Of a stretch of 64,000 nt of DNA, positions 11,063 to 53,793 are shown in pieces. The notes beneath the pieces are model-generated. The model did not search any database. It worked only from the letters and a program-made list of their open reading frames with translations, and had not been told where the DNA came from. The position numbers were made by a program, and so were the translations under genes. The stretch comes from a virus: positions 17,358 to 81,357 of IMG/VR virus record IMGVR_UViG_3300027815_000080; one strand, written 5' to 3'. Position 1 is the first letter of the stretch. Every line of letters starts with the position of its first letter.

Positions 11063-11064
11063 CG

Positions 11065-12325: not shown

Positions 12326-12327
12326 CC

Positions 12328-30449: not shown

Positions 30450-30451
30450 CC

Positions 30452-35322: not shown

Positions 35323-35796
35323 GTGGTCACACCAGAGATCAGTAAGCGGTTGGAGACGGGCCTCAAGGCCTGCTCGAAGTGCGAGCAGACCAAGGGGTTG
35401 TCTGACTTCCATCGCAGTAAGGTCTCTGGTGACGGTCGCGTGGCTTGGTGCCGTGCCTGCCTCAAGGGATACGATCGGGAGCGCAGAGCTCAAGGGAAGG
35501 CGCCGAAGCCAAGTGCTGAGGCGTTGGAACGGAGGCGGCGTTCTCCAGCACTTCGGGAAGCCCGGCGTCGTGCTCAACGGCGGAAGCTCGCAAACCCGCT
35601 GGAGATGTTCAAGGTCTACGTCCGTAGCGCCACTCACGCTGCGGTGAAGGCCGGACTGATTCAGCGGCTCGGTTGTGAAGTTTGCCGGAGCACCGATGTC
35701 CAGGCCCACCACATCGACTACGGCCGGCCACTGGAAGTCAAGTGGCTCTGTGCACAGCACCATTCCGACCTCCACAAGGGGGAGAACGAGACATGA
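35323..35796 (+). CDS. HNH endonuclease
   Basis: CSKC..K...DF...DG..WCRAC; CEVC...AHHIDYGRPLEVKWLCAQHH. Confidence 0.85.
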   Translation: MVTPEISKRLETGLKACSKCEQTKGLSDFHRSKVSGDGRVAWCRACLKGYDRERRAQGKAPKPSAEALERRRRSPALREARRRAQRRKLANPLEMFKVYVRSATHAAVKAGLIQRLGCEVCRSTDVQAHHIDYGRPLEVKWLCAQHHSDLHKGENET

Positions 35797-36692
35797 AGAC
35801 GAAGCGTTTCCGCGCAATGCTGGCCGCCGGATTGGCGGTGGCCATGGCTGCCGTCCTGGCCTGGCCGGCCGTCATGGCCGCACAGGTCAGGACCGGCAAC
35901 GGGTATTACTACTTCCTCCAGCTGACCAACGAGTACGACGAGCCCTTCACCACCGACGGGTTCGCTAACTGCTCCATCTACAGTCGTGAAGACAACGGGG
36001 CGGTGCGGTCGTACACGCACAGCACGTCATCGCTGAACCTGGCCTCGGCGGTGGCCGGGCCGCTCTACAGCAGCGTCAACGGCCTCATCCACTGGTACTC
36101 CAGCAGCACCAACCCAGTGGACGTGGTCTGCTACACCAAGTCCGGCGACTCCGGCCGCAAGTCGTCCGTAACCATCCGGGACCACAAGCTCCGGATCGTC
36201 ACCTCGGGGTCCGCCAAGGTCATCCGCTTCCCCTTCTCAGGTGGGGCGGCCGCGAAGTACATGACCGACACCGGTCTGTTCGTTCCGGAAGGTGCTGTCA
36301 TCACGGATGTCGCGGTTCAGCTGGCGACCTCTCCCGCCCAATGGGCCCATATTGACGTGGGTCTGGGCGGCAACCACACGGTCTCGACGGGCTCCGCGCT
36401 CGCTCGGCAGATCGACCTCTTGGGATCTCCTCGGTTCATCCTGGCCCACAACGGGTCCTGCTTCCCGCCGGCTGCGAACTGTGTCGCGGCCGACCATCTC
36501 GGCGCGGCGCTGACCCACGTGACAGCGCTCTCAGGGAACGGAACCCTGCGCTCGTACAAGCCCTACATGGTGCACACCACGGGGGGCCTGAGCGTGACCT
36601 ACAGCACCCCGGCCGGCTCGCAGGGCGGGCACGGCTATGTCTTCTTCCGGACCCTCCATGTCGGGAGTACGGTCATGGGGGCTGGCTACTAG
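35793..36692 (+). CDS. Capsid decoration/cement-like protein with Sec signal peptide
   Basis: Signal MKTKRFRAMLAAGLAVAMAAVLAWPAVMA; C-half VPEGAVITDVAV...IDVG resembles cement proteins; follows MCP. Confidence 0.6.
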   Translation: MKTKRFRAMLAAGLAVAMAAVLAWPAVMAAQVRTGNGYYYFLQLTNEYDEPFTTDGFANCSIYSREDNGAVRSYTHSTSSLNLASAVAGPLYSSVNGLIHWYSSSTNPVDVVCYTKSGDSGRKSSVTIRDHKLRIVTSGSAKVIRFPFSGGAAAKYMTDTGLFVPEGAVITDVAVQLATSPAQWAHIDVGLGGNHTVSTGSALARQIDLLGSPRFILAHNGSCFPPAANCVAADHLGAALTHVTALSGNGTLRSYKPYMVHTTGGLSVTYSTPAGSQGGHGYVFFRTLHVGSTVMGAGY

Positions 36693-36714
36693 CCGCACCT
36701 GACGTAGATTGACC

Positions 36715-36758
36715 GGCCGGGGGGTTTGGGGCGCGAGTCCTGGGCCCCCCGGCCTTCA
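36715..36758 (+). terminator. Long hairpin with GNRA tetraloop after capsid unit
   Basis: GGCCGGGGGG/CCCCCCGGCC outer stem, inner c-GCGA-g loop; weak U-tract. Confidence 0.5.
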
Positions 36759-36790
36759 CCACGAAAGGTCAAGGAGGGGGTATAACCTAA

Positions 36791-37441
36791 GTGACGGGAC
36801 GCTTCATCGGCCTCGGGATCAGGAAGTACCGGCGCCCCGCCGCCCAGCATCACGCTGCCTTCCGCCAGCTGGCCGGCAGCGACCAGATCGCCAGCCACTT
36901 CGCCCTGACCGTCCTGATGGCCGCGCTCGAGCGGCTCCAGCCGGAGCGGGTCCTCGAGGTCGGGAGCGGGATCGGCACCATGACGGCGCTCCTCACCAAC
37001 TTCGGGTGCGAGACCCACGCGGTCGAGGACAACCCCTGGTGCGCGACCCAGATGCGGAAGAACCTGAGCGACTGGGCCGAGTACCGCCTGAGCCCGGGTC
37101 TGGGCTACCTCCACCCGCTGATCGTGGTGGACGGGGACCAGATCCGCCCGAACATCGCGCTTGGCGTGCTCGCCCGCTGGGGCTGGATCCTGGTCGAGGG
37201 CAACCGGCGGGCGTGGCGGGCTGGCCTGAAGTACGGCTACCGCCCCTTCGCCGCGGTCAACCTCCGGCCCTTCGACCAGAGCAAGGGGATGTGGGTCCTG
37301 GCCTTTGAGCCGAGCCCGGCCATCCGGCTCGGCTTCGCGCTCGAGCGCGGCTGGCAGCGGATCCTGGGGTTCACCTCCCGCGCCTGGTCACTCCTGACTG
37401 GCGCCACCTACTACCACGGAAAGCGCAGGGTCTCATGCTGA
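36791..37441 (+). CDS. Class I SAM-dependent methyltransferase (non-DNA)
   Basis: RVLEVGSGIGTMT motif I; HAVED; IVVDGD. Confidence 0.8.
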   Translation: MTGRFIGLGIRKYRRPAAQHHAAFRQLAGSDQIASHFALTVLMAALERLQPERVLEVGSGIGTMTALLTNFGCETHAVEDNPWCATQMRKNLSDWAEYRLSPGLGYLHPLIVVDGDQIRPNIALGVLARWGWILVEGNRRAWRAGLKYGYRPFAAVNLRPFDQSKGMWVLAFEPSPAIRLGFALERGWQRILGFTSRAWSLLTGATYYHGKRRVSC

Positions 37442-38673
37442 AGTACCTGGATATGCTCTCGTCGCCGGTCCCCGCCCAGCGCATCGCCTGGATCTGGGTA
37501 TTCCTGGCCGTGGCGATCGCCGCGCCCTTCCCGGCCTTCGGCTGGCCGCTCCCGGAGCGGGCCGTCCCGATCATGTGGCTGATGCTGGGCGGGGTCTCGA
37601 CGCTGGTCGCCCTGGTCTGCCGGGTGAGCATCCCCTTCGCCGCCTTGATCGGCTGGTCGATCCTCCGGGCCGGCTACCACTCCTTCCCGGAGCGGAGCCT
37701 GAAGGTCCTGCTCCTCATCGTGATGGTGGCCATGCTCTACGTGGTGGCCCGTGACGCCTCGGATCGGATCGCCCGAATGGTAGCGGTCGGCTTCTGCATC
37801 GGCGCCGCCTGGGAGGGCCTCCTCGGCCTCGTGAACGCCATGGGGGTCTACCCCTGGATGAGCGTGGTGATGGCCGAGCACGTCGGCAAGCCCATGGGGT
37901 TCCTGACCCACCCGAACTACTGGGGGAGCTTCATGGCGCTCCTGCTCCCGGTGGTATGGTCGGTGGCCGGGATCCCCGCCGCGGCGCTGGTCTACCTCCT
38001 GATCCTCAAGACCGTCTCGGCCGGCCCGGTCATCGCGGCCTCGGCCGGGATCCTCGTGATGGCCTGGCCGCTCTTCAGTCGGCGGGTCCGTGGGTTCATC
38101 GGGGGCGGGATCGCGACAGCGACCGCGCTCATCCTGTACCTCCACGAGTTCCGCCTCTCCGGCCGGACCGAGGTCTGGACGCTGGCCTTCCCGGAGTTCC
38201 TGCGGTGGCCGATCATGGGCCAGGGCCTCGGCCAGTGGCGGACGTGGGCTGAGGACTGGGACCGCGCCAACTACCTTCCGCAGGCCGGGAAGAATTTCCT
38301 GGTGACGCTCCAGGCCCACAACGAGCCCTACCAACTACTCTTCGAGCTCGGGATCGTCGGGGGCATCCTGGGCGGTCTCTGGCTCGCACAGGCCGGCCTC
38401 GCCGCCTACCGAGTCTGGAAGGCCGCGCCGGCCGCGATGATCCCGAGCGAATGGTACGCATGGGGGCGGGCCCCCCTCGAGCGGGCGTGGATCGCCGTGG
38501 TGGCGACTGCCCTCGTGAACAGCCTCGGCTCCCCGGTGTTCCACCTGCCGGGCCAGGCCGCCATCATCATCTTCGCGCTGGCCCGGATGCAGGCCGACGC
38601 GGAGGCCCTTTACCCGAGGGTCCTCATCAAGCCTCACCGTGAGGCCAAGTTAGCAGCACAGGAGACCAGGTAG
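37435..38673 (+). CDS. O-antigen ligase / oligosaccharyltransferase-like (WaaL/Wzy_C family) membrane protein
   Basis: About 11-12 TM segments; GFLTHPNY, SGRTEVW, PIMGQGLGQW, QAHNEPYQLLFELGIVG. Confidence 0.85.
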   Translation: MLKYLDMLSSPVPAQRIAWIWVFLAVAIAAPFPAFGWPLPERAVPIMWLMLGGVSTLVALVCRVSIPFAALIGWSILRAGYHSFPERSLKVLLLIVMVAMLYVVARDASDRIARMVAVGFCIGAAWEGLLGLVNAMGVYPWMSVVMAEHVGKPMGFLTHPNYWGSFMALLLPVVWSVAGIPAAALVYLLILKTVSAGPVIAASAGILVMAWPLFSRRVRGFIGGGIATATALILYLHEFRLSGRTEVWTLAFPEFLRWPIMGQGLGQWRTWAEDWDRANYLPQAGKNFLVTLQAHNEPYQLLFELGIVGGILGGLWLAQAGLAAYRVWKAAPAAMIPSEWYAWGRAPLERAWIAVVATALVNSLGSPVFHLPGQAAIIIFALARMQADAEALYPRVLIKPHREAKLAAQETR

Positions 38674-38675
38674 GC

Positions 38676-39173
38676 ATGGTCCATATGGAACCAGAGAAGC
38701 GGCGGGCCGCCAAACAATCCACCAACCGCGCATGGTGGGTCGCCAACGGCGATCGGGTGAGAGCCGCTAGGCGTGCGCAGTACGCAGCGAATCCCGAGAA
38801 ACACCGGCGTGCCTATCGCGCATGGTACGCAGCCGATCCCGACAGTGTTTGTGCAGGCCAGCGCGCGCGGTACGCAGCGGACAGGCTCCGCTGCCTCGAT
38901 CACTACAGCGCGGGCACCATGAAGTGCGGATGCTGCGGCGAAGGCACGGAGCAGTTTCTGACCATGGATCACATCGACGGTAGAAAGACGATGGGCCACG
39001 ACAAAAGCATGAGTGGGCATCGGCTGCGCCGCTGGTTAGTCAAGAACGGCTTCCCTCCGGGCTTTCAAGTGCTCTGCTACAACTGCAATTGCGCGAAGGG
39101 GTTCTACGGTCAGTGTCCACACACATCAACCACCGAAGAGAGGAGCTTGCTCCATGCCAGTCGCACCCGGTAA
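38676..39173 (+). CDS. HNH endonuclease
   Basis: CGCCGE...FLTMDHIDG...GFPPGFQVLCYNCN.AK....CPH. Confidence 0.85.
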   Translation: MVHMEPEKRRAAKQSTNRAWWVANGDRVRAARRAQYAANPEKHRRAYRAWYAADPDSVCAGQRARYAADRLRCLDHYSAGTMKCGCCGEGTEQFLTMDHIDGRKTMGHDKSMSGHRLRRWLVKNGFPPGFQVLCYNCNCAKGFYGQCPHTSTTEERSLLHASRTR

Positions 39174-39663
39174 GGCCAAGATGCAGAGCGCCGAGGTCGA
39201 GCTCGGCGACAACACCCTCAAGCCCGAGGTGCCGATGGTACGGTGCCGCGTGGTCTACATGGGCAACAACCGCGGCCGCTCGGTCGCCCTCCCCGGCCAG
39301 GTCCACGTCGAGCGGATACAGACCGGGTTCGACGAGAAGGAGGTTCCGACCTACGAGGAGAACCGCCGGGCCGTCGCCGACGGCATCCAGTCCTACGACT
39401 TCTCGAGCCACGACGTACTCGGCCGGCTGATCGCCGAGCGGATCATGGCGCCCGACACGGAGCACGCGGGCAAGCCCTTCGCGTGGTGCGAGCACATCGA
39501 CCACATCCGGTGGTTCCATCTCCAGCGCACCGAGGACGGCGCGAAGGAGTTCCGGGTGCTGGCGAACCGCGCCGACCAGCCGATCATCCAGGATCACGTC
39601 CGCCGCTTCATCTCGAGCAAGCAGCAGGCGGAAGGAAACTTCGAGGCCATCGCCTCGAGGTAG
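39154..39663 (+). CDS. Hypothetical protein in head-completion position
   Basis: GAGGAG SD; GC3 bias. Confidence 0.7.
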   Translation: MPVAPGKAKMQSAEVELGDNTLKPEVPMVRCRVVYMGNNRGRSVALPGQVHVERIQTGFDEKEVPTYEENRRAVADGIQSYDFSSHDVLGRLIAERIMAPDTEHAGKPFAWCEHIDHIRWFHLQRTEDGAKEFRVLANRADQPIIQDHVRRFISSKQQAEGNFEAIASR

Positions 39664-39701
39664 TTCACCCAATCCACATCAGAGAAGGGGGGAAACCGAC
39701 C

Positions 39702-39944
39702 ATGGACTACCACTGCAAGGGCGGCGCCGAAGCGCCGATGCCCGTCCCGTCAGAGTTCGCGCCCAAGGGCGATCCCAAGAGCCTGAGCGACGACGGGAGC
39801 GCCAACGCCGCGGGGGAGAGCAGCGAGCCGGGCAAGGCCCTGGCCGAGTTCGCCGGGCTGGGCAAGGCCGAGAAGATCAGCGGCATCACGGACTCCGGGA
39901 AGGCCAACCTCACCAAGACGGGCGGGCCCCAGCGGGTCGGATAG
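39702..39944 (+). CDS. Small low-complexity protein (80 aa)
   Basis: AAGGGGGG SD; MDYHCKGGAEAPM. Confidence 0.65.
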   Translation: MDYHCKGGAEAPMPVPSEFAPKGDPKSLSDDGSANAAGESSEPGKALAEFAGLGKAEKISGITDSGKANLTKTGGPQRVG

Positions 39945-40002
39945 CTCCACCGGGTAGGGCGAGTCGGGCGCCCGCTCCCCACAAGGAGAGGCGCAGGTGA
40001 GT

Positions 40003-40737
40003 CTAGCTGGATTGATGCGGACAGGTGCCGAGGCGGTGCTTTGCCCAGTTGCAGTTGCGGCAGAGCACCTGATAGCCGGTCGGATAACCACGCCGCCGCA
40101 GCCGTCTGTAGAGACTCGACCCACGACCGAAGAGTTGCCGTTCGGCGTGACCATTGCCGGCGATGTGGTCAAGATCAAGAAAGACAAGGCCGGTCTCGCC
40201 GCAGCAGACACAGCGTATCCCGCCGTAGGCGGTCAAGACATCTTCCCGCAGCCTATTGGCGTCGCCTCGCCGCCGCCGCCCGTTTGCGGTCATGGATCCT
40301 TCACAGGTGCGGCAATAGGCCCTGGTGCCACCCTGCCAGAAATCGCCAATGGCGACAAACTGCCGGCAGGCGGAACACCATCGCGTCCCAGGCGGCCCTA
40401 TCTTGGTCTTGATGTGGATCCCGCGGCGCCGTCGTTTGTCGGTCTGCCAGGAGACTTCGCACGGGTGACAGTAGCCACGGAACCTGCCGGATGGCCGCTT
40501 CGGGAACTCCCGGATCGGTTTCGTGGTTTCGCACCGCTTACACCAGCGCATGCCATCTGGAACCGGATGGACCTTCGGCTGGATTCCGCGCGCTCGGCGG
40601 TTGGCTTCTTGGCGAGCGACGCTACAGGCACGGCATGGCCCAATGAACTCGCCAGCCCGTTCCCCTGTGCGGCGCCGTTGAAACTCTGCCACAGGCTTAG
40701 TCTCGTCGCAGGAGTAACAGTGCCGCTTAGTGTGCAT
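40003..40737 (-). CDS. HNH endonuclease on the opposite strand with repeated zinc fingers
   Basis: Three CxxC..K/F..F..CxxC units; CVCCGE...LDLDHI...GYPTGYQVLCRNCNWAK..CPH; paralog of 38676. Confidence 0.85.
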   Translation of the reverse strand: MHTKRHCYSCDETKPVAEFQRRRTGERAGEFIGPCRACSVARQEANRRARGIQPKVHPVPDGMRWCKRCETTKPIREFPKRPSGRFRGYCHPCEVSWQTDKRRRRGIHIKTKIGPPGTRWCSACRQFVAIGDFWQGGTRAYCRTCEGSMTANGRRRRGDANRLREDVLTAYGGIRCVCCGETGLVFLDLDHIAGNGHAERQLFGRGSSLYRRLRRRGYPTGYQVLCRNCNWAKHRLGTCPHQSS

Positions 40738-40787
40738 ATCTCAGGTACCATCGCACACATCATCCACGTAGTCAACGGCTTGTAACT

Positions 40788-41651
40788 ATGGCCAACTTCG
40801 ACAGTTTTAACGATTGCCTCCTGGACCTGTTAGAGCGCGGCGACGAAGAGACAGACGGCACGAGCGATTGGGATGCCGCAGCGCGAAGGGCACTGGTCCG
40901 CGCCTTCCACTTTTTCATGTCGGCTCACCCGTGGTGGTTCTTGGAGGTCACGCCGCCCGGCGTCTTCCTGACCGTCGCCCCGATCACCACACGGACCATC
41001 ACCATCGCCGCTGCTGGTGAGGCCGTAGCCGCAACCCTATCAGCGACGTATGCCACCAGCCTGACCGGATACAAGCTCATCTTCGCTGGCGAGGACTACT
41101 CGATCCGGATCACCGCGCACACGGCGGGCTCCGCCGCCTTGACGCTGGATGCGGCTCCGGAGGCGAAGGCGGCCGGCACCGCGGTCACCATCATCAAGGA
41201 CGAGTACGACCTCGTCGCCACGGCCGGGATGCTGGTGGACGGGCTCTGGACGGGCCGCGGCGACTTCATCGCCTCCAAGAGCGAGGACTACATCCGTACC
41301 ACCTTCCCGGATCCGCCGGACTCGGGCTGGCCGCCGGAGTGCTTCACCCGGATCACCAAGCGCCGGATCCGCCTGAGCCAGTACCCGGACGCCGTGCACA
41401 GGATCGAGTACCCCTACACGCAGATCCCGGCCGACCCGTCGGGCTCGGGTGACCTCGTCATCGACCAGAACTTCCGGTGGGTGCTCTCCGACGGCGGGCT
41501 CTACTTCCTGCACCTCTTCAAGTCCGACAAGCGGGCCGAGGCGGCGAAGGCGCTCTTCGAGCAGGGGATCGGGCAGGCGATGGTCTACCACCACCGGCTG
41601 AAGATGGGGCTCACGGGCCACGGCCAGGAACCGAACCGGGGGCCCTATTGA
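40788..41651 (+). CDS. Head-tail adaptor (tail tubular A-like)
   Basis: N-terminal helix pair, AHPWWFL, GxP...ITK..IRL..YPD; position before nozzle. Confidence 0.7.
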   Translation: MANFDSFNDCLLDLLERGDEETDGTSDWDAAARRALVRAFHFFMSAHPWWFLEVTPPGVFLTVAPITTRTITIAAAGEAVAATLSATYATSLTGYKLIFAGEDYSIRITAHTAGSAALTLDAAPEAKAAGTAVTIIKDEYDLVATAGMLVDGLWTGRGDFIASKSEDYIRTTFPDPPDSGWPPECFTRITKRRIRLSQYPDAVHRIEYPYTQIPADPSGSGDLVIDQNFRWVLSDGGLYFLHLFKSDKRAEAAKALFEQGIGQAMVYHHRLKMGLTGHGQEPNRGPY

Positions 41652-41887
41652 ACCAGGTCCAGCGCAACCCCGGGTGCCTCCGCGAGTGCCGCCTTGACCG
41701 AGCGGTCGAGCCGGGCTTCGTCATCGAGTCGGGCTGTCCCGTCCATGACCGCGAGGGGTATCGGCCCTTCGTGGTCCGCTGGTTCGGCCCGAACCCGTGT
41801 CTGCTCGGGACGCTCTCGCTCTGCGACGATCCCGAGGCCCTCCACGAGCATGTCCTCGTCGCCTCGTTCCTCATGGGGCTGAACTGA
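41648..41887 (+). CDS. Small hypothetical protein
   Basis: TTG start overlapping stop; CLREC...CPVHD. Confidence 0.45.
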   Translation: MNQVQRNPGCLRECRLDRAVEPGFVIESGCPVHDREGYRPFVVRWFGPNPCLLGTLSLCDDPEALHEHVLVASFLMGLN

Positions 41888-43461
41888 TGGCCTACGACGG
41901 CGTGACGGTCGTCGAGGTGGTGGCAGGCCGGGAGGGTCTCTGGGGGATCCGCAACCGCAACCTGATCCCGCTGGGCGGCCTGATCGAGCTCCGCAACGCC
42001 ACCCTCGAGGACTACACGTGGCGCACGGGCGGCGGCGCCAGCAAGCTCGGGAGCTCCTTCGGGGCCGGGCTCTCGGGCAAGATGGCCTTCAACTTCTGGC
42101 CGGACGCCGACACCGAGCGGAATGTCGTGGTGGACGAGAACGGCGCGATCTGGAAGGACGACGGGGCCGGCGGCTCCTGGGCCACGGTCCAGACCGGTCT
42201 GACCACGACCGCCTGGCATCCCTTCCTGGTCCCGGGTGCCGCCGAGTCGTCGGGGTCCAACCGCAAGCTCTTCTACGCCGACGGGGTCAACAACCCGCGC
42301 TACCTCGACGGGGACGCCGCGGCGATGACGGCCTTGGCGAGCCCGGCGGCGGACTGGACCGCGGGCAACGTCAACCGCCAGCCGAGCTTCTTCGTCTCCC
42401 ACCAGGGGTATATGTGGGGCGGCGGGAACAAGAACGCCCCGAACCGGATCTACCGCTCGAGCCTGACCGACCACACGTCCTTCGGGGCCAGCCCCTACAG
42501 CCTGCCGGTCTTCCCGGGCTTGCGGCAGCGGCTCGTCGGGGGCCTGTCCTACAAGGGCGTGCTGCTCCTCTGGGCGTACCCGTCCGGCCTCTACGCGGTG
42601 GACACCTCGGATCCGTCGGACGCCAACTGGCGGATCATCCAGGTCGGCTCGCCCGGCGCGGCCGGCCCGATGAACATGGCGGCGATCGAGGACGACATCA
42701 TGTGGGTGTCGCCGGACGGCTCGTGGCACTTGGTCTCCGCGACCACGGCCACCGGCTCCGTCCGCGCCGAGGACCTCACCGCCCGGAAGCTCGGCTCCTT
42801 CGCCCGCGAGCAGGTGAACCTCGGGCAGCTGGTCGATGCCCAGATGCTCTACTACTCCAACAAGCAGGAGATCATGCTCGCCTGCGCCGCGCAGGGGCAG
42901 ACCGTCAAGACCCGCCGCCTGCACATGGATCTGAACAAGCGGTCCGAGGTGGGCGAGCGGTGGCTCTGGTGGGACCGGGACACGAACGAGTCGATCTTCC
43001 TCCGCAAGGTGGACGAGACCATGGTGCCGGCCATGGTCGATGACGAGGGGCAGATCTGGCTCCTCGACCGGACAACGCGGGCGAAGGACGGCGCCGGCTA
43101 CCAGTTCTCGTGGTTCCTGAAGCCCTCCGACTTCTCCGAGGTCATTCCGGGCTGGCAGGGCCGGAAGAAGAACCTGCGATTCATCCAGCTGGAGTATGAC
43201 GCCCGGTCCGGCGCGACCCACACCGTCGAGATCTACGTCGAGGGCAACCTCGTCAAGACCTTGACCTTCACCCTCACGGGCTCCGGCGCAACGCTGCCGG
43301 CCGTCCTCCCCTTCATCCTGGGGACCGAAACCCTGCTGGTCACCGCCCGGCGTAGGCTGACAGGCCAGGGCGTGCGAATCGCCGTGCGGGGGCGGTCCAA
43401 CGCGGCCAACGCGGATGTCTCGATCAGCCGAGTCCTCATCGGCTTGGAGCTCGGAGAATGA
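41887..43461 (+). CDS. Tail nozzle / tail tubular protein B (P22 gp10-like)
   Basis: 524 aa beta-propeller-like; FYADGVN, IYRSSL.D..SF, SPDG, DF....GRKK.LRFI. Confidence 0.75.
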   Translation: MAYDGVTVVEVVAGREGLWGIRNRNLIPLGGLIELRNATLEDYTWRTGGGASKLGSSFGAGLSGKMAFNFWPDADTERNVVVDENGAIWKDDGAGGSWATVQTGLTTTAWHPFLVPGAAESSGSNRKLFYADGVNNPRYLDGDAAAMTALASPAADWTAGNVNRQPSFFVSHQGYMWGGGNKNAPNRIYRSSLTDHTSFGASPYSLPVFPGLRQRLVGGLSYKGVLLLWAYPSGLYAVDTSDPSDANWRIIQVGSPGAAGPMNMAAIEDDIMWVSPDGSWHLVSATTATGSVRAEDLTARKLGSFAREQVNLGQLVDAQMLYYSNKQEIMLACAAQGQTVKTRRLHMDLNKRSEVGERWLWWDRDTNESIFLRKVDETMVPAMVDDEGQIWLLDRTTRAKDGAGYQFSWFLKPSDFSEVIPGWQGRKKNLRFIQLEYDARSGATHTVEIYVEGNLVKTLTFTLTGSGATLPAVLPFILGTETLLVTARRRLTGQGVRIAVRGRSNAANADVSISRVLIGLELGE

Positions 43462-45032
43462 AGACAGTCAAGCGGTTCGGTGCGGGGATCCTCGTCGGGT
43501 TCCTGCTGGCCACTCTGTTCTCGGCCCCGTGGGTGTACCAGGCGTGGGCGATCGGGTCCTGCGCGGTCTTCCGGACGTGGAATACGGGTGACACGGTCAC
43601 CGCGGGCGACCTGAACTCGTCCTTCACGACCGCCGCGGTGACGAACTCGACGCCGCAGTGTCTCGACGACTACTCGGCGACCGTGAGCCAGATGCAGGCC
43701 ACGACCGACCCCTTCGCCTCCTCCACCGAGAGCCAGGCGACCAGCACGGCCGGCGAGATCGAGCGGCTCCGCTTCATGTTCAAGCAGATCTTCGGGCTGA
43801 CCCAGTGGTATCGGCACGACCAAGCCCCGACCTTCAGCTTCAGCCATATGAACGCGCAGGCCCTCCACCTCGGCTCGACCGGAGTTCCGGGCGGGACCGA
43901 CGCCCAGCAAAACCAGTTCCTCTCCCGCTTCCCGGTCCTCACGGGTCCAGACCACTGGACGGGGATCTGGTGGCCTCACAACACCGCGCACATGGCTTTC
44001 TCCTTCCGGGACGCCAACCACGCGGCGGGCGGGGTCCAGGGCGGCATCGAGCTCTTCCGGTGGCATGCCCAGGGGGTGGTCTTCCACCACACCGTCGCCC
44101 TGATGTTCCGGCACTCGGTAGCGAGCAACGGGGCGACCACGCACGTCACGGCGATCCAGATCGACCCGACCACCGACCAGCTGATCTTCGGGCACCGGGA
44201 AGCCGGCATGAGGCTGCGGGCGGCTGGGCTTCACGTCGGCGGGCTCGTCCAGGTTGGTTTCGGGGGGCATGTCACCGGCACGATCGGTGCCGGCACCGCC
44301 GAGGTGACCTTCGTCAGCGCCGCCTCGATCCAATTGGGTCATGGCGTGGTGCCGGTTTTCAAGGATGGCGTCTGGACGATGCGGGCCGTGTCCACGCCCG
44401 TGACGCTGTCCAACAGCGGGCTCTCAGCCGACACGCTGTACTACATATACGTCTTCGACAACAGCAACACCCTCACGCTCGAGGCCTCGACGACGGGCCA
44501 CGAGCAGGACGCAGCCTTCGGGGTCCGAGTCAAGTCCGGTGATCGCACCCGAACCTTGGTCGGCATGGTCCAGGTCCTCAGCAGCGGGTTTGCCGACCAC
44601 GCCTCCGGACGCCTGACGGCCACGTGGTTCGGCAGGCGGCTACGAGAAGCTCACGCCGTCGGCGGATTAGGCTCAGGCACAACGACGAGCACCGCGTATG
44701 TCTCGCTGGGCATCGAGTCCGTGGTCGGCGTGGTGACCTGGGGCGGCGAGGAGCTTACCTGCACCTCCGGGGGCGGTGACATCCAGAACAACACCGCCGG
44801 GGGGTTCGTCTTCGTGGCCTGTGCAGTAGACGGGTTTGAGTTGCCGGGGTCTGGCGGCGGGCAGTCTGTCGGCGCGGGCAATCGGTTCTTCTTCATCGCG
44901 CATGGTGTGCAGCAGAACGTTACCGAGGGGTTCCATCGGGTTTTCCCGATGTGGCGAGTCAATACCGGGACAGGAACGATAAGCGGCTCGGCCCCAGAAA
45001 TCCTCACCACGCGCGTCCGAGTTCTTCGGTAG
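43458..45032 (+). CDS. Tail fibre/spike with N-terminal Sec signal peptide
   Basis: Signal MKTVKRFGAGILVGFLLATLFSAPWVYQAWA, then W..GDTVTAGDLN fibre-anchor-like motif; beta-rich; follows nozzle. Confidence 0.65.
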   Translation: MKTVKRFGAGILVGFLLATLFSAPWVYQAWAIGSCAVFRTWNTGDTVTAGDLNSSFTTAAVTNSTPQCLDDYSATVSQMQATTDPFASSTESQATSTAGEIERLRFMFKQIFGLTQWYRHDQAPTFSFSHMNAQALHLGSTGVPGGTDAQQNQFLSRFPVLTGPDHWTGIWWPHNTAHMAFSFRDANHAAGGVQGGIELFRWHAQGVVFHHTVALMFRHSVASNGATTHVTAIQIDPTTDQLIFGHREAGMRLRAAGLHVGGLVQVGFGGHVTGTIGAGTAEVTFVSAASIQLGHGVVPVFKDGVWTMRAVSTPVTLSNSGLSADTLYYIYVFDNSNTLTLEASTTGHEQDAAFGVRVKSGDRTRTLVGMVQVLSSGFADHASGRLTATWFGRRLREAHAVGGLGSGTTTSTAYVSLGIESVVGVVTWGGEELTCTSGGGDIQNNTAGGFVFVACAVDGFELPGSGGGQSVGAGNRFFFIAHGVQQNVTEGFHRVFPMWRVNTGTGTISGSAPEILTTRVRVLR

Positions 45033-45045
45033 GGAGGCACTGACC

Positions 45046-46026
45046 ATGCGACTGAGGCTACTCTCTCTCCTGCTGGGCGTGCTGCTCCTTGCGGCGCCAG
45101 CGCAAGCCGCGACGCCGTTCTACGTCTCCGATTCCTTCACGTATGCCTTCCAGGACTTCGCAACGACCGGGGCGTGGCACTTCACGGGCCCGGCGAACAT
45201 GGAGCACGCCTGGGGTACCGGCCAGCCCGTGACCGTCGAGGCGCTGGGGACCGAGCTCGGCTTTGTCGCCTATGCCGACTCGCTCGCTGGCGTCAACGCC
45301 GATGTCTACATGTGCCTCTACGATCTCGGCAACGTGGTGAGCGGGATCGCCCAGCCGGTCCTCGTGGGTGGCCAGCCGGTCATCCTGAAGTACCTCACGA
45401 GCGGTGGGGCCGCGATGGGCGACGGGCTCCTGATAAACGGGGTGCACCGGGCGGGTCAATACAGCCGGGCGGGCCGGGCGCTCGTGGACCCGATCCGCCT
45501 CGGCGGCGTCACGACGCCGGCCACCGGCGGGCCGTTCCAGGTCGGGTCGCTCTTCCGGTTCTTCGGGAGCGTCCCGCAAAACACCGCCCTCGCCTATCAG
45601 TATTTCTTGCAGGGGCGGGTCCTGGACACGGTCCCGCCGCCGCCAGCGGGAACCGCCGGGGCCTTCCTCGCCTTCGTTGACGCCGGGGCCCTGACGGCGG
45701 GCCAGACCAAGTACACCGCCGCGTGGGCCGGATCGACCAGCGAGGGCGATGTCTACACTCAGATCATCGTGCCGCGGGCGGGCACGGTCAAGAGTCTGCG
45801 CGTGAAGAGCCAGGTGGCTCCCGGCAGCGGTCAGACCCACACGTTCACGGTCCGGAAGAACGGCGTGGACACCGGGCTCAGCGTGGTGCTGTCGGGCTCG
45901 GCCGTCTCGGGAGCGGATCTCGTGACCGAGGTCGCCGTGGCTGCGGGCGACATCGTGACCATGAAGGAAGTGGCGTCGGCCAGCGCCGCGACGACCACCG
46001 TGACGGCATCGGTGGAGGTGCAATAG
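45046..46026 (+). CDS. Secreted virion-associated protein
   Basis: Signal MRLRLLSLLLGVLLLAAPAQA; C-terminal PRAGTVKSL.V...PG....TFTVRKNG.DT beta-sandwich. Confidence 0.65.
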   Translation: MRLRLLSLLLGVLLLAAPAQAATPFYVSDSFTYAFQDFATTGAWHFTGPANMEHAWGTGQPVTVEALGTELGFVAYADSLAGVNADVYMCLYDLGNVVSGIAQPVLVGGQPVILKYLTSGGAAMGDGLLINGVHRAGQYSRAGRALVDPIRLGGVTTPATGGPFQVGSLFRFFGSVPQNTALAYQYFLQGRVLDTVPPPPAGTAGAFLAFVDAGALTAGQTKYTAAWAGSTSEGDVYTQIIVPRAGTVKSLRVKSQVAPGSGQTHTFTVRKNGVDTGLSVVLSGSAVSGADLVTEVAVAAGDIVTMKEVASASAATTTVTASVEVQ

Positions 46027-46036
46027 GGGGCTCGCC

Positions 46037-46498
46037 ATGGGCAGCAAGCCACACCAGATCGCCTGGTATCAGAGAAATCGTGAGCAGATCCTTGCCGCGC
46101 GGAAGGAGCGCTACGCCGCCATGACCGCCGGCGTGGAGTACAAAGCCCCAAAGCGGGTGAAAGCGTACCAGACCAAGGACGAGCGGGAAGCGTACATGCG
46201 GCGCTGGCGCGAGGCGAATCCGGATACGTTTGTCCGCCTGGGGGCCGGGGTTAGGCTCTCAGGGGCGGCTTATAACGCAATGCTGGCCCAGCAGGGCGGA
46301 CGCTGCGCGATCTGCGGAGATCTGCCGGGGTGCCGGCGACTGGCGATCGATCACGAACATGCACAACCTACTGTCCGTGGCCTCCTCTGCTTCAGGTGCA
46401 ATACGGCCCTCGGCTCTTTCCAGGACAACCCGGCGTTGCTTCGGGCGGCGGCGGGCTATCTTGAGAGGCATCAGTCGCGGCACTTGATGGAGGCCTAA
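46037..46498 (+). CDS. Endonuclease VII-type HNH endonuclease
   Basis: YNAML..QGGRCAIC...LAIDH.H....VRGLLC..CNTALG.F.DN...L..A..YL. Confidence 0.9.
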   Translation: MGSKPHQIAWYQRNREQILAARKERYAAMTAGVEYKAPKRVKAYQTKDEREAYMRRWREANPDTFVRLGAGVRLSGAAYNAMLAQQGGRCAICGDLPGCRRLAIDHEHAQPTVRGLLCFRCNTALGSFQDNPALLRAAAGYLERHQSRHLMEA

Positions 46499-48001
46499 AT
46501 GGGTGATTTTTTTGATTTTGGGTTCGACAGTTCGCTCAACTTCGACTTCCAGATGCCGGCGGTCGAGGACTTCAGCACCTACGACTACGGCAGCCCGACC
46601 TACGACTACGCCGCACCGGAGCCCTACACCTACGACTTCCAGCCGTCGGCCTTCGAGCTCCAGGGCCCGGTCTGGGACGCGAACTCCTGGATCCGGGAGA
46701 CGGCCGCGCAGGCTCCGTCGTACAGCCTCGGGGGCGGGTTCTCTCAACAGGGCCAGATCAGCCACTACGATCCCTCGACGGGGATCTACTTCGACACCGC
46801 CGGGAACCCGGTCCAGCCGCAGTCGGGCGGTCCGGTCGAGGGCCCCATGACACCGGGCGGTCAGGTGGCCGGGATCCAGGAAGGCACCGGCCTGACCTAC
46901 GATCCGGTCACGAACGGTTGGCGCAACGCGGCGGGGGAGATCGTCAACGCCGCTGGTCCGGCGGCCGGGGCCGCGGCGGGGGCTGGTGCCGGGCTCGTAG
47001 CGGGGCGTCCCGGTCAGCCAGGCGCCGCCGGCGGTGGCGGCTGGATGGATACCATCAACAGCTTCCTGAAGTCCCCGCTGGGCGGGCTGGCCACCGCGGC
47101 GGGCACCGGCTTGGCGGGTCTCGGGGTCAGCAAGTGGCTCGCCGGCGAGCCCCCGAAGACTCCGAACCCTCAGTTGGCACCCGGGGACCCGATCAACGCG
47201 GCCGGCCAGAACACGATGGCCCAGTTCTACGCCGACCAGGCGGCGCGGGACGCCGGGTATCAGGCCGAGCAGGCACCGGGCTACCAGGGGATCCGCAACC
47301 AGGCCATGACACTCATCCCGGGGCAGTTGAACCCGGTTGGCATGGAGACCTACCAGGACCCGGTGCAACAGGCCATGCAGGCCGAGCTCCTCGCCACGAT
47401 GCAGGGCGGCGCGACCCCGATGGTCGAGGAGCAGTTGCGGAAGGACTGGGCCACCCTCCAGAACACCATGTACCGGCAGTTGGGGAACAACCCGGATTGG
47501 CAGATGTCGAGCCCCGGCCAGGAGGCTGTCAACTCCTTCAACCGCAACGCGGCCATCGCCCGGCAACAGAGCAAGGACGCCCGCGTCGCGGCCTATGCTC
47601 CGGGAGAGGGGCAGCGCCAGCAGTGGGGCTATCAGGCTCCGGTCGAGCGGGCGCGGGCGCTCGGCGGCGAGCAGCGGGCCTACGTGGACACTCTCTCGCG
47701 CACGAGCGGCCTCGGGCGCATGGATCCGGCTTCGATCCAGGCCGGGCTGGGCGGGCAACCCGATCAGTACCGGGCGCTGATGACCAACCTCGGCTCACAG
47801 AGCCAGACCCTTGGGTACAACACCGCGCAGCAGGAGCGGCGCGATACCATGGCCGGCGTGGGCGGCATTGCGGGCACGGTAGCGGGCCAAATTGGCCAGT
47901 ACGGCAACGCTGATAGAATAGCCAAGGCCCTCCGCGAGCAGAACGGAGCCACCGCCGGGACCGGATCCTTCGGGGCTGGCGGCTGGGGGACGGGGTACTA
48001 A
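46499..48001 (+). CDS. Internal virion / DNA ejection protein (500 aa)
   Basis: Gly/Gln-rich, C-terminal GGIAG..AG motif; typical podovirus position. Confidence 0.65.
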   Translation: MGDFFDFGFDSSLNFDFQMPAVEDFSTYDYGSPTYDYAAPEPYTYDFQPSAFELQGPVWDANSWIRETAAQAPSYSLGGGFSQQGQISHYDPSTGIYFDTAGNPVQPQSGGPVEGPMTPGGQVAGIQEGTGLTYDPVTNGWRNAAGEIVNAAGPAAGAAAGAGAGLVAGRPGQPGAAGGGGWMDTINSFLKSPLGGLATAAGTGLAGLGVSKWLAGEPPKTPNPQLAPGDPINAAGQNTMAQFYADQAARDAGYQAEQAPGYQGIRNQAMTLIPGQLNPVGMETYQDPVQQAMQAELLATMQGGATPMVEEQLRKDWATLQNTMYRQLGNNPDWQMSSPGQEAVNSFNRNAAIARQQSKDARVAAYAPGEGQRQQWGYQAPVERARALGGEQRAYVDTLSRTSGLGRMDPASIQAGLGGQPDQYRALMTNLGSQSQTLGYNTAQQERRDTMAGVGGIAGTVAGQIGQYGNADRIAKALREQNGATAGTGSFGAGGWGTGY

Positions 48002-48005
48002 GCAC

Positions 48006-49568
48006 ATGGGCATCGGCGGTTACCTCGGGGCTTTTAACGAATCCTTCGTTCGTGGGCAAGAGAATGCCCGCCGACAGGGGCAGGCCGACCTTCGGGAGGG
48101 GTTGGCCCTGGACGCTGTCCGGCAGCAGGGGCAGGAGCAGCAGGACCTCGGCGGCCTGACCGGGGCGTTCCAGGCCCGCCGGGCCGCGCTGGCCAATCAG
48201 CCGCCACCCGCGCCCGGTGCCCCGCCGGCGGGCATGCCACCCCCGATGGTATCGCCCGACGCGATGATGGGCGGGACGGTGCCGGGGGTGACGCCACCCG
48301 CATCACCTGCACCCGGGATGGTTCCGTCAGGGACCGGTCCCGCTGGGGCCCCCGCCGACGAGGGACCCCGCCGGAAGAGCCTGCTCGAGTCCATCGACCC
48401 GGCCATGGCGGGCCGGCTCCTGCGGACCGGCGCGGGCCGCTCGGCGCTCAAGGACCTCGAGACCGCCGAGAAAGAGCAGGAGCAGGCCGACAACCGCAAG
48501 CTGGCCGAGACGGTCTTCACCGACGCGACCAAGGCCATGCGGGACGGAGACGCGCTCGGGTACTACGACAACGTGGCCAAGGCCATGCGGATCATGGGTC
48601 ACCACGAGTCCGCCGCGAAGTACCTGGAACACGCGATGAACCTCCGCGGCGACCAGGACGAACAGAAGAAGGCGAATGAGGACCTCGGGCGCTGGCTCAA
48701 GGCCCAGGCGGCCTACACCAACGATCCGAGCCCCGACAACTACAACAAGTTCATGGAGGATCTCGGGCAGGCCAACAGCAAGGCCTCGCGGGCGATGCGG
48801 GTCCAGATCGCCAACAACGTCCTGGCCAAGACCTTCGACCAGAACCCCAAGGTGGCGAGCTTCTCCCGCGGGCTGGCCGGGGCCTACCGCGATGCCTGGG
48901 CCACCGGCAAGGACCCGGATGTCGAGAAGATCTTCAAGGACCTGGCCGGCAAGGATCCCGGGGGGTTCCAGGCCTACATCTACGACGCCATGGTCGGGCA
49001 GAAGAAGCTCCCGGACGTGGTGGTTCGGAAGGTCCTGAAGTGGGAGGGGCAGGACAAGGACATCCCCAAGAACATCTCGGAGAAGGCGTGGCTCCGGACC
49101 CGCCAGCGGTTCCCGAGCCTCCGCGCCGATGACCCGAAGTTCCTCGAGGCGTGGTGGGCCGACGAGGTCAAAATGACCCGGGAGATGGACAAGGGGAAGA
49201 AGTCGGACGAGGGCCGGAAGGAGTTCCGGGCCGATCGGTCGGAGCTTCGCCAGCGCCTCAACGGGGTCCGGGGGGAGCTTCGCCGGGTGGACCCGGAAGA
49301 CTCGGCTCGGCTCATGGAGCTCCGGCAGGAAGAGGCCCAGGCCAAGGCCGACCTCGATGAGGCGGAGGCAGCGTATCGGAAACAGTCAGGAGTTCCGGAG
49401 GGTAAGCCGGCCGAGGTTAAGATTCCGGTGAATGCCCCGAATCCTAAGATCAAGCCAACAGACGAGAAATACCGCAATTCAGCGCGGGCCGAGATGACGC
49501 GGCTCGGGCAGGCCGGGTACTCGCGGGAGCGGGCCATCGCCGAGATGCGGAAGGCGGGGTGGCAGTGA
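48006..49568 (+). CDS. Internal virion / DNA ejection protein (520 aa)
   Basis: MGIGGYLGAF..SF..G start, helical; follows previous gene. Confidence 0.65.
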   Translation: MGIGGYLGAFNESFVRGQENARRQGQADLREGLALDAVRQQGQEQQDLGGLTGAFQARRAALANQPPPAPGAPPAGMPPPMVSPDAMMGGTVPGVTPPASPAPGMVPSGTGPAGAPADEGPRRKSLLESIDPAMAGRLLRTGAGRSALKDLETAEKEQEQADNRKLAETVFTDATKAMRDGDALGYYDNVAKAMRIMGHHESAAKYLEHAMNLRGDQDEQKKANEDLGRWLKAQAAYTNDPSPDNYNKFMEDLGQANSKASRAMRVQIANNVLAKTFDQNPKVASFSRGLAGAYRDAWATGKDPDVEKIFKDLAGKDPGGFQAYIYDAMVGQKKLPDVVVRKVLKWEGQDKDIPKNISEKAWLRTRQRFPSLRADDPKFLEAWWADEVKMTREMDKGKKSDEGRKEFRADRSELRQRLNGVRGELRRVDPEDSARLMELRQEEAQAKADLDEAEAAYRKQSGVPEGKPAEVKIPVNAPNPKIKPTDEKYRNSARAEMTRLGQAGYSRERAIAEMRKAGWQ

Positions 49569-49644
49569 CGCAGCGCGACTCGGCACGTGGAACATTTATG
49601 CCCCGGGGCAAAACCACTTTCGAGAGGGAGGGAGATGACAGGCC

Positions 49645-50244
49645 ATGGCTGAGAACGAGCCGATTCTAACCGTTGAGGACATCAAGAACATCGAGCTAGC
49701 GATGCCCATTATCCGGGCACTGACGAAGGTCGAGCCGCTGCTCGCCAAGGCCTCTCAAGCCCACACGCTGCTCGCCGACGTGAAGCGCCTCGAGGCTACC
49801 CAGGCGAGGATGAAGTCGGAAATCCAGGAGCAGCACGCCGTCGCGGTGCGAAACCTTGACAGAGCCCTCGATCAGGCCAGGGCCGCCGCTGAGGTGGAAG
49901 CCGCCCAGAAACAGGAGCATGCGGACGGCAAGCTCCAGGCCGCCGAGGATCATCTGAAGCGTCTCCAACGTGATGCAGAGCGCACGCAGGAAAACCTGAC
50001 ACAGACCAAACTGAAGCTGGACCGCGAGATCGAACTCCTCCGCCAGTCGATCGTGAGGCACAGCGAAGAATCATCCCAGGCGATCGCCAGGGCTCGGCAG
50101 GAGCTTGAGGCGACCAGGCAGGCCACGGCGAAGGAACTCGCCCAGCCGATCGCCGAGAAGGCCAAGCTCCAGCAGGACATCATGCACCTGAAGGCCGAGA
50201 AGCAGCGCATTGCCACAGAGCTCAAGGCTGTGCTGGGAGGATAG
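49645..50244 (+). CDS. Long coiled-coil protein
   Basis: Heptad-rich 199 aa; GGAG SD. Confidence 0.7.
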   Translation: MAENEPILTVEDIKNIELAMPIIRALTKVEPLLAKASQAHTLLADVKRLEATQARMKSEIQEQHAVAVRNLDRALDQARAAAEVEAAQKQEHADGKLQAAEDHLKRLQRDAERTQENLTQTKLKLDREIELLRQSIVRHSEESSQAIARARQELEATRQATAKELAQPIAEKAKLQQDIMHLKAEKQRIATELKAVLGG

Positions 50245-50248
50245 CCGC

Positions 50249-50572
50249 ATGGGCCAGTTCACCTCCGGAACGCCCGCCGACAATCCAACGGCCGGCACCA
50301 TCCTCGTGACCAGTCAAACGGTCACCGTGCCGCGCCAATACAAAGTTAAGGTCAGCATTGCGTCCGAGGGGAATTTCTGGGCAACCGTCACCCATCGGGC
50401 ATCCGGCGGAGGGGCCAGGACCTCGTTCTTTGTGCCTGTTGTCGGGCCGCTCTTGGGCCCGGCCGATCTGTATGAGACATATTTCCATTCCGGTGATTAC
50501 GTGGAGATCGCCGTGCGAGATGGTGCGCCGACCGTCGTCGGCACCGTTCAGGCGATCGTGGAGCTCCTATGA
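50249..50572 (+). CDS. Small beta-sandwich virion protein
   Basis: GGAGG SD; beta-rich 107 aa. Confidence 0.6.
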   Translation: MGQFTSGTPADNPTAGTILVTSQTVTVPRQYKVKVSIASEGNFWATVTHRASGGGARTSFFVPVVGPLLGPADLYETYFHSGDYVEIAVRDGAPTVVGTVQAIVELL

Positions 50573-51663
50573 TGAAGCGTCTCCCGGGTCTCGCGCTCAT
50601 TGCGGCTATCGTCGGGCTCCTCGTTGGCCCGTGGATGGTCCAGGCCCAGAATCCGGCCCAGCGCGTCATCATCATGGACGCGACGGGGACGCATGCCGCG
50701 ACCGTCTCGTCCGGCAACGCCCTGTCCACCTCAGCGGCCGTCACCGTCGATACGATCAGCCATATCACGTCCAAGACGCACATCGTGGGCAGCGTCCAGC
50801 TGACGAACCAGGCGGGGGCGGTGGTCACGGTGACGGGAACATCCCTTGACGTGAACTGCACGGGCTGCTCGGCGGCCTCCTCCGTTACCGTCAGTCACGT
50901 CGCGTCCGCGCTCCACCTCGCCGGCACCATCGGTGGGGCCCAACTCCACGTCCAGGGCCTCGGTATTCCGGGCCAAGCGCACGGGGGGGTCTTGACGATT
51001 CAGGGCGTGGCGGGAGGGGTCGCGGTCCCCATCTCCGGCACGATCACGGCCGGGGACGCGGTCAATGTCTTCCACCAGAGCACCATCCGGCATATCTCCT
51101 CCGTGACCCACATCCAGTCGGTCGGCCGGTTGGGCACAGATAGTCACCAAGGGGGAGCCTGGAACGTCTCGGCCGCCCAGTCTGGGTCGCTGACCGTGCA
51201 GGCCGCCCACCAAGGTGGCGAGTGGACGGTCGCCCATGTCTCGGGCGCGGTGCACGTCGCGGCCATCGCCCAACCCATTCATGTCGTCGGGGTCTCGATC
51301 GTCAACTCAACCTTCCCCCTGACCTGCCACTCCTCCCTGGCCTTCCACACCTCCGCGCGGGCGACCACCCTCGCGCATGCCAACTCCGGCATGAAGATCT
51401 ACATCTGCGGCCTGCTGCTCATCATGCAGAGCGCGGACCAGGTTTCGATCGTCGAGGGTCAGGGGACGGCCTGCGGAACTGGGCGAACGGAGCTCATCGG
51501 TCATACCACGGCCGCGCTGTCCCTGCCAGCCACCGGCGGCTTCTCTACCATCCAGCCCTTCCCGTGGATCAACAGTAAGACGGCCGGTAATGCGGTCTGC
51601 CTCGTCAAAGGCAACGCGACGGCGCACGTCTCCGGCGTCATCACCTATAGAGGAGCCTCATAG
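50569..51663 (+). CDS. Secreted fibre-like protein with His-spaced repeats
   Basis: Signal MMKRLPGLALIAAIVGLLVGPWMVQA; four H-[IV]-x-x-x-x-H-[ILV] units. Confidence 0.65.
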   Translation: MMKRLPGLALIAAIVGLLVGPWMVQAQNPAQRVIIMDATGTHAATVSSGNALSTSAAVTVDTISHITSKTHIVGSVQLTNQAGAVVTVTGTSLDVNCTGCSAASSVTVSHVASALHLAGTIGGAQLHVQGLGIPGQAHGGVLTIQGVAGGVAVPISGTITAGDAVNVFHQSTIRHISSVTHIQSVGRLGTDSHQGGAWNVSAAQSGSLTVQAAHQGGEWTVAHVSGAVHVAAIAQPIHVVGVSIVNSTFPLTCHSSLAFHTSARATTLAHANSGMKIYICGLLLIMQSADQVSIVEGQGTACGTGRTELIGHTTAALSLPATGGFSTIQPFPWINSKTAGNAVCLVKGNATAHVSGVITYRGAS

Positions 51664-52701: not shown

Positions 52702-52752
52702 ATGGCTGACATCGCGTTGGGGGCTAGCATATATCGGGGCGCCCCATAGGTC

Positions 52753-53769: not shown

Positions 53770-53793
53770 TTACCACGAGAAAGGAGTGACTCC

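Follow-up and report, generated by a model that had tools for sequence, protein, structure and literature searches.

Signal peptides on four late proteins

The virus genome IMGVR_UViG_3300027815_000080 (IMG/VR) harbours, among its virion-structural genes, four genes encoding proteins with an N-terminal signal peptide. These genes are located in a stretch of 64,000 nucleotides (positions 17,358 to 81,357 of the record), here called the window, which represents 64 kb of an 89,082-bp single-contig genome rated complete by CheckV. The window has a GC content of ~67 % and nearly all of its genes are on the plus strand. Its late genes are ordered portal, scaffold-like protein, major capsid protein (MCP), head-to-tail adaptor, nozzle-like tail protein, several internal or ejection-like proteins and a giant multi-domain protein starting at 56418. 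The four signal-bearing proteins, designated SP1 to SP4, are a cement-like protein (SP1), the probable post-nozzle tail fibre (SP2), the product of the gene next to it (SP3) and a fibre-like protein with a His repeat (SP4) (Table 1).

Table 1 Genes and features in and around the late region (positions in the window)
Feature	Position	Strand	Characteristics
SP1, 299 amino acids	35793-36692	+	signal peptide, residues ~1-29/30 (35793-35882); N-domain, residues 38-137 (35904-36203); C-domain, residues 138-290 (36204-36662)
SP2, 524 amino acids, probable post-nozzle fibre	43458-45032	+	signal peptide, residues 1-31 (43458-43550); N-module, residues 33-125 (43554-43832); variable C-terminal part, receptor-binding-protein-like
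SP3, 326 amino acids, fibre neighbour	45046-46026	+	signal peptide, residues 1-21 (45046-45108)
SP4, 364 amino acids, His-repeat fibre-like protein	50569-51663	+	signal peptide, residues 1-26 (50569-50646); six Cys in mature part
Portal, P22-type	30428-32695	+	no signal peptide; PF16510, E 3e-93
MCP, HK97-type	34325-35302	+	no signal peptide; PF13252, E 1e-43
Head-to-tail adaptor	40788-41651	+	no signal peptide; homologues match PF24175 SU10_adaptor
Nozzle-like tail protein	41797-43461	+	no signal peptide; precedes fibre gene in all lineages; stop overlaps SP2 start (ATGA)
Methyltransferase-like gene between SP1 and Wzy_C	36791-37441	+	Methyltransf_23, E 3e-4, below cut-off; in most, not all, relatives
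Wzy_C membrane protein (O-antigen ligase/polymerase family)	37435-38673	+	PF04932, E 2e-8, 34.5 bits against a cut-off of 31.7; ~7 or more hydrophobic spans
Homing-endonuclease-like gene, LAGLIDADG	29988-30449
Homing-endonuclease-like gene, HNH	35323-35796
Homing-endonuclease-like gene, HNH	38676-39173
Homing-endonuclease-like gene, Endonuclease VII	46037-46498
Lipobox protein and DUF1353 protein	23211-24034		lipobox LPGC, 123 amino acids; DUF1353 protein: PHROGs 'tail assembly chaperone' (phrog_1158, E 1.5e-20)
1461-amino acid protein before portal	25362-29747		zero Cys; no Pfam match
734-amino acid late protein	53794-55998		12 Cys; no leader; no Pfam match

Signal peptides were detected with a hand-written rule, not with a trained predictor such as SignalP. 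The n-regions of all four proteins are basic, with two to four Lys or Arg residues within the first seven positions, and are followed by an uncharged hydrophobic core (best 8-residue Kyte-Doolittle mean 2.7-3.3) and a helix-breaking Pro located 4-8 residues ahead of a small-x-small site. The SP1 leader carries K2, K4, R5 and R7, a core rich in Ala, Gly and Leu, and Pro25; cleavage is predicted after VMA (before A) or after MAA (before Q). SP2 has K2, K5 and R6, a 20-residue core and Pro24, with predicted cleavage between AWA and IGSC. The leader of SP3 contains R2 and R4, a Leu-rich core and Pro18 (predicted site between AQA and ATPF), and that of SP4 contains K3, R4 and Pro21 (predicted site between VQA and QNPA). 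In the AlphaFold2 (AF2) models of SP1 and SP2 a detached N-terminal helix is followed by a low-confidence linker at the predicted cleavage site. No comparable N-terminus was found on the portal, scaffold, MCP, adaptor and nozzle proteins or on the remaining late proteins; in the rest of the genome it is limited to a few small proteins of early or lysis-like type. The initial annotation had reported Sec signals on SP1 to SP4 and none on portal, MCP, adaptor and nozzle, and had proposed the mature ends A/QVRTG, IGSC, ATPF and QNPA; inspection of the N-termini agrees with it on all these points.

Such hydrophobic segments may be an artefact of annotation, the true starts being located downstream of them. 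No point supporting this was found, and it is very improbable. Each of the four genes starts with ATG preceded by a GGAG-type Shine-Dalgarno site, and in SP1, SP2 and SP4 this ATG forms an ATGA overlap with the preceding stop codon. Moreover, the leaders are conserved at the protein level in homologues from independent assemblies, and all members of the SP1 family alignment have K4 and R7. Downstream starts were therefore rejected and the starts as originally called were retained. A twin-arginine translocation (Tat) signal was also rejected, since the motif S/T-R-R-x-F-L-K is absent; the SP1 family has K-[RS]-F-R-G and the others have KR or RxR. The third candidate to be rejected was a conserved lipobox in SP2: the protein of the window reads I-G-S-C, but about half of its relatives have Asn or Pro at position -1, and the same Cys is retained where the leader is missing. 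As judged from sequence, the four open reading frames are confirmed to carry genuine cleavable leaders of the Sec type, presumed substrates of signal peptidase I. Export of the four proteins across the inner membrane is well supported by these features and would be expected to occur in vivo.

In the SP4 family the predicted site is nearly always followed by Gln, and the SP1 family has an invariant Gln31. This is reminiscent of the Q-rule described for secreted proteins of Bacteroidota (PMC10653852). SP2, SP3 and the other leaders of this phage group do not follow such a rule.

Conservation of the leaders in related phages

A leader is present in all 18 homologues of SP1, which share 45-93 % identity. 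About 56 of 60 SP4 homologues have one as well; the sequences of these leaders are widely different and end in small-x-small. The SP2 family comprises 3655 representatives (E <= 0.001), and its leader classes were counted on the 57 N-module representatives among the best 150 hits, ~46 of which have a signal. Type I leaders of ~20-33 residues were found in 41 of the 57, placing 24-37 residues before the conserved Cys. Four are hydrophobic but were classed differently by the hand-written rule, two have a true lipobox (LAGC) followed by a Pro-rich linker, one has a non-hydrophobic extension, and nine are leaderless and begin with M-[AP]-G-[NS]-C. In the 41 type I leaders position -3 is Ala (61 %) or Val (17 %; 78 % together) and position -1 is Ala (59 %) or Ser (22 %; 80 % together), and these small residues are always at the same distance from the conserved Gly-x-Cys. 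The leaderless forms, after removal of the initiator Met, have the N-terminus that signal peptidase would create. In the SP3 family the leader is kept in six of the seven long forms, while nine short homologues without leader start 2-4 residues before the conserved YVSDSF. Because leaderless relatives of SP2 and SP3 begin at the predicted site, the leader is a separable module bounded by that site. Furthermore, the leader property is kept while the sequence drifts in four unrelated families, which indicates that the signals are selected and do not occur by chance. The presence of a lipobox instead of a type I leader in two SP2 relatives is hard to explain unless the family is exported.

Comparison of the fibre modules of related contigs revealed how the leaders are distributed over genomes. 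In the window and in contig L009 both the fibre and the product of the next gene (SP3 and an SP3 homologue, respectively) have a leader. The fibres of L010, L006 and L007 are leader-bearing too, and are followed by an unrelated 247-amino acid Laminin_G_3 protein, a 112-amino acid protein and a 158-amino acid protein, respectively, each with a leader; the gene at the SP3 position thus encodes a signal even when unrelated to SP3. In L013 neither the fibre nor the next gene product has a leader, and in L022 a leaderless fibre is accompanied by a leaderless SP3 homologue. L018, of which 21 kb was read, contains two copies of a fibre without leader; none of its 24 head-tail genes encodes a signal-like N-terminus and no Wzy_C protein was called. 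Export status switches with the whole fibre module of a genome and not with the protein family.

It might be argued that these N-termini do not serve export, and are used in cytoplasmic assembly, for example as a transient membrane tether or as a handle for oligomerisation or chaperones, or are removed by a phage protease. For some phage capsid proteins with a predicted signal, trimming by the prohead protease has indeed been proposed (Matrishin et al. 2023, PMC10367356). Also, the core of SP1 is rich in Ala and Gly and only weakly hydrophobic, and the existence of leaderless relatives demonstrates that mature parts can function from within the cytoplasm. However, the full n-h-c layout with its Pro breaker and the -3/-1 rule is found in four unrelated families as well as in unrelated proteins that replace them at the same locus, a lipobox takes the place of the leader in some relatives, and the positive-inside layout predicts translocation of the protein body. 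A role other than export is therefore considered unlikely.

SP1 and the adjacent Wzy_C gene

In the AF2 model of SP1 the N-domain is a transthyretin/CarboxypepD_reg-like sandwich and the C-domain a jelly roll. The mean predicted local distance difference test (pLDDT) score of this model is 64, with values of 74-84 over residues 141-190 and lower values toward the C-terminal end of the jelly roll. In fold comparison the jelly roll scored best with three podovirus cement proteins, namely those of cyanophage Pam1 (7eel_H, Z 10.2) and Helicobacter phage KHP40 (7dou_4, Z 10.2) and gp01 of Ralstonia phage GP4 (8h89_J, Z 9.2), which superpose over 109-123 aligned residues. A sequence search of the PDB with SP1 gave no match. 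GP4 gp01, a 'virion associated protein', is specified by the gene that immediately follows the MCP gene. The position of SP1 is alike: it is encoded just downstream of the MCP gene, with one HNH gene between them in the window, and directly adjacent to it in relatives. The GP4 portal is, moreover, a distant relative of the portal of this phage. The known cement proteins consist of 124-157 amino acids, are leaderless and bind capsids in the cytoplasm, whereas SP1 has in addition a signal peptide and a 100-residue sandwich domain. Fold and gene position bear out the post-capsid cement-like identity given to this protein initially. On balance they favour SP1 being a capsid decoration protein, and the presence of mature SP1 on the virion is plausible.

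SP1 and the Wzy_C gene are always neighbours, as observed in six independent contigs (L001, L003, L004, L005, L009 and L010), and related contigs without one of them lack the other one too. Searches with the Wzy_C sequence against solved structures and NCBIfam gave no match. The link between leaders and Wzy_C is not strict: the fibre of G001 is leader-bearing, while only a sub-threshold Wzy_C-like match is found elsewhere in G001. It had been suggested that homologues lacking signals might occur in phages without the ligase gene. This was borne out in one case, L018, whose fibres lack signals and for which no Wzy_C was called within the 21 kb around the fibre genes.

Several variants of this region were observed. 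Two of the homing-endonuclease-like genes bracket the block of SP1, methyltransferase-like gene and Wzy_C in the window; L009 and L010 carry the block without them. In L005 (1044-4177) two diverged SP1 paralogues, both with leaders, flank Wzy_C, and the methyltransferase-like gene is absent. L014, a distinct lineage with an SU10-type MCP, encodes about five leader-bearing proteins, a small lipoprotein and a weak Wzy_C between MCP and adaptor (2854-7547). Of these leader-bearing proteins, one of 182 amino acids was aligned to SP1 with an hhalign probability of 20 %, and one of 338 amino acids gave no match to SP1.

Outside the window the genome harbours a pathway for a nonulosonic-acid-type sugar, which spans the contig ends (genome positions 86087-89080, i.e. 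L025:4788-7781, and 21-12375, i.e. L024:21-12375). It comprises a GNAT acetyltransferase, a CTP_transf_3 cytidylyltransferase, a GFO/IDH/MocA oxidoreductase, a DegT/PseC/LegC-like aminotransferase (E 6e-61), a methyltransferase, an NAD 4,6-dehydratase/epimerase, a NeuB/PseI-like synthase with SAF domain (E 5e-76) and a HAD hydrolase. Four related contigs, including three fragments, showed neither NeuB nor the rest of the pathway, suggesting that the sugar pathway is not a trait of the clade.

The fibre module and SP4

The SP2 gene comes immediately behind the nozzle gene, to which it is coupled by overlapping start and stop codons, and it is the only gene with the N-module in a genome rated complete. 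Leaderless relatives are encoded at the same post-nozzle position in L013, L016 and L018. Those of L013 (P0119) and L018 (P0199) have the N-module in common with SP2 (52-63 % identity over ~90 residues) as well as the modular design, and fibres of this type start at the very point where SP2 would be cleaved. An N-terminal tail-binding domain followed by a variable distal part is also the design of podovirus fibres of the T7 gp17 type. Among SP2 relatives the N-module is paired with the domains Phage Tail Collar (3), Gp10_C (2) and Gly_rich_2 (6); the SP2 of the window itself has no Pfam match, and searches of Pfam and PHROGs with the four proteins gave nothing but one PHROG of unknown function, on SP2. 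The C-module of SP2 matches a 'tail protein' of Rhizobium phage RR1-A (tblastn E 3e-15), and it is this module alone that matches cultured phages (Rhizobium, Bradyrhizobium). Cultured phages yielded no record matching SP1, SP3 or SP4. Fold matches of the SP2 model are weak and all of one kind, to Mtd and to shoulder domains of receptor-binding proteins (Foldseek probability 0.99 but E 0.1; VIA Z 5.1). For the helical N-module (pLDDT ~80-90) no fold match was reported, which is not evidence for a new fold. In agreement with the initial annotation, and as the sole gene of the fibre family in this genome, SP2 quite probably encodes the tail fibre of this phage, and mature SP2 is likely to be present on the virion.

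Cys35 and Cys68 are invariant in the SP2 N-module, leaderless forms included; one representative lacks both. The Cys residues had been brought forward as a rationale for export. This argument turned out to be weak, as the pair is likewise present in leaderless relatives and SP3 has only one Cys. The post-nozzle fibre of L014 has a lipobox and a Pro-rich linker in place of a type I leader.

The nearest Atlas clusters of SP4 are unnamed viral ones. The called open reading frame that starts at 51590 shares 74 nucleotides with the end of SP4; an in-frame Met codon at ~51668, just past the SP4 stop, is a likelier start.

A possible periplasmic route of virion assembly

Tailed phages are the textbook example of purely cytoplasmic self-assembly. 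The leaders described here suggest that part of the virion of this phage may follow another route. The four leaders would function late in infection, the proteins being exported across the inner membrane in unfolded form and then cleaved. In the periplasm they would fold and oligomerise, with disulfides being possible there, and they might be modified by the Wzy_C-family enzyme encoded beside SP1. SP2 would act as the post-nozzle tail fibre, SP3 as its module partner, SP4 as a second fibre-like protein and SP1 as a cement-like decoration with an extra, outward sandwich domain. SP2, and perhaps SP1, would meet the DNA-filled particle built in the cytoplasm only once holin lesions and lysis merge the compartments, and would dock as last-step parts in the way that tailspikes, fibres and decoration proteins of model phages can in vitro. 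Periplasmic maturation and docking at lysis are steps that we infer. Docking at lysis appears physically plausible, because late addition of tailspikes, fibres and decoration proteins that is competent in vitro is classical for P22, T4, lambda and phage L. The route as a whole, i.e. Sec export, periplasmic maturation and docking on the particle at lysis, is proposed tentatively, as a fair possibility that stays short of probable. A more elaborate version is quite unlikely: a two-compartment particle, of which head, portal, adaptor and nozzle are cytoplasmic, while fibres and cement-like protein would be oxidised in the periplasm after export, would receive a glycan there from the phage's own Wzy_C-family transferase, perhaps one containing nonulosonic acid, and would join the particle at lysis.

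Several observations weigh against periplasmic maturation and docking. In the literature no tailed phage with exported fibre or cement proteins was found. SP1 has no detectable sequence similarity to the podovirus cement proteins (hhalign probability of 0.6 % with GP4 gp01), and its jelly roll also resembles generic jelly rolls and carbohydrate-binding modules (CBMs), at Z ~7, below the cement matches. The two SP2 variants with a lipobox would be membrane-anchored, which fits a role in the envelope better than one in the virion. Position and viral look-alikes are all that would tie SP3 and SP4 to the virion, and fibre candidates without signal are also encoded at 52072-55998.

The main alternative, which takes up some of these points, is that the proteins are exported but never become part of the particle. 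They would then act in the envelope of the infected cell, by masking or destroying receptors and thereby sparing progeny, by phage exclusion or by remodelling glycans with Wzy_C. In that case SP1 and Wzy_C might form a periplasmic glycan cassette, with SP1 as a sugar-binding helper instead of a cement protein. The gain and loss of SP1 and Wzy_C together would be in line with this, as would the resemblance of the SP1 domains to CarboxypepD_reg and CBM folds, which are common in exported sugar-binding proteins, the lipobox of two SP2 relatives and the nonulosonic-acid pathway of the genome, which could serve cell-surface remodelling. Signal-bearing non-virion genes among tail genes are, moreover, textbook knowledge, as in lambda lom and in T5 llp, which lies beside the receptor-binding gene. 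However, SP2 is the sole N-module gene, so that with an envelope role the virion would miss the fibre that its leaderless relatives have at the same locus. SP2 is also ATGA-coupled to the nozzle gene, the four genes have no promoter or terminator of their own, and cement proteins outrank CBMs among the fold matches of SP1. An envelope role is thus possible but somewhat doubtful.

Known systems with exported phage or phage-like proteins

Lambda Lom and Bor and T5 Llp are encoded by signal-bearing non-virion genes in phage tail regions, and spanins and SAR (signal-anchor-release) endolysins are lysis proteins using Sec. Like SP1 to SP4, these are products of late genes with Sec or lipoprotein signals. 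Those of the Lom, Bor and Llp type are small, have no relation to virion parts and are often expressed from promoters of their own, whereas here SP2 belongs to a fibre family and SP1 resembles cement proteins in fold, and no such moron signature was found. Promoter-like sites numbered 2 against 1.5 expected and terminator-like sites 11 against 9.3, with none flanking the four genes. Moron or lysogenic-conversion genes were rejected on the basis of this lack of an own promoter or terminator and of the start-stop overlaps with upstream genes.

The coat proteins of filamentous phages (Ff pIII and pVIII) are made with leaders and assembled outside the cytoplasm. Ff phages differ in that they are non-tailed and are extruded through the envelope without lysis, and there is no homology. 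The MAT fibres of Bdellovibrio bacteriovorus are phage-tail-fibre-like trimers made with a signal peptide, immediately behind which lies a conserved domain of ~130 amino acids (Caulton et al. 2024, PMC10769870). These show that phage-like fibres can fold after Sec export. They are proteins of a cellular predator, displayed by the cell and not encoded in a phage virion operon, and no sequence relation was found here. Sec signals have also been predicted on capsid, spanin and unknown genes of Porphyromonas gingivalis phages; those on the capsid were taken as protease-cleaved, and tail fibres and periplasmic assembly were not discussed (Matrishin et al. 2023, PMC10367356).

An assembly route with leader-bearing, exported fibre or cement proteins in a tailed phage seems to be new, as no published description of one was found. 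If true, disulfide formation and periplasmic glycosylation would become available to virion parts in a widespread group of environmental phages, and the final assembly step would be tied to lysis. For these phages it would then be a mistake for annotation pipelines to equate a signal peptide with 'not structural'. If instead the proteins function in the envelope, they would represent a large, unnoticed class of fibre-derived envelope factors. The occurrence of leader-bearing and leaderless relatives at one locus provides a natural experiment, and the pair of SP1 and Wzy_C is a concrete candidate for periplasmic glycosylation of a capsid protein.

Genome context

The closest cultured phages by portal are Agrobacterium phage Atu_ph08, Sinorhizobium phage PBC5 and Ralstonia phage GP4, at only ~25 % identity. 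Both sequencing runs that contain 100 % of the sampled words of the probe are labelled groundwater metagenome, which may be the source of the DNA. Six further runs contain 20-26 % of the probe words (three groundwater, one mine drainage, one freshwater and one soil), from which no habitat can be derived. A host search with the MCP against genome contigs gave no match, and scans of genes and libraries recognised no clear endolysin or spanin pair. The close relative L003, a 39-kb contig, is classed as a provirus by IMG/VR.

The four homing-endonuclease-like genes are scattered in the structural module (Table 1). Upstream of the portal gene, the gene for the small lipobox protein is followed by that for the DUF1353 protein, and a 66-amino acid hydrophobic protein is encoded before both. 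The large Cys-free protein is encoded between these genes and the portal gene, and the Cys-rich late protein is encoded downstream of SP4.

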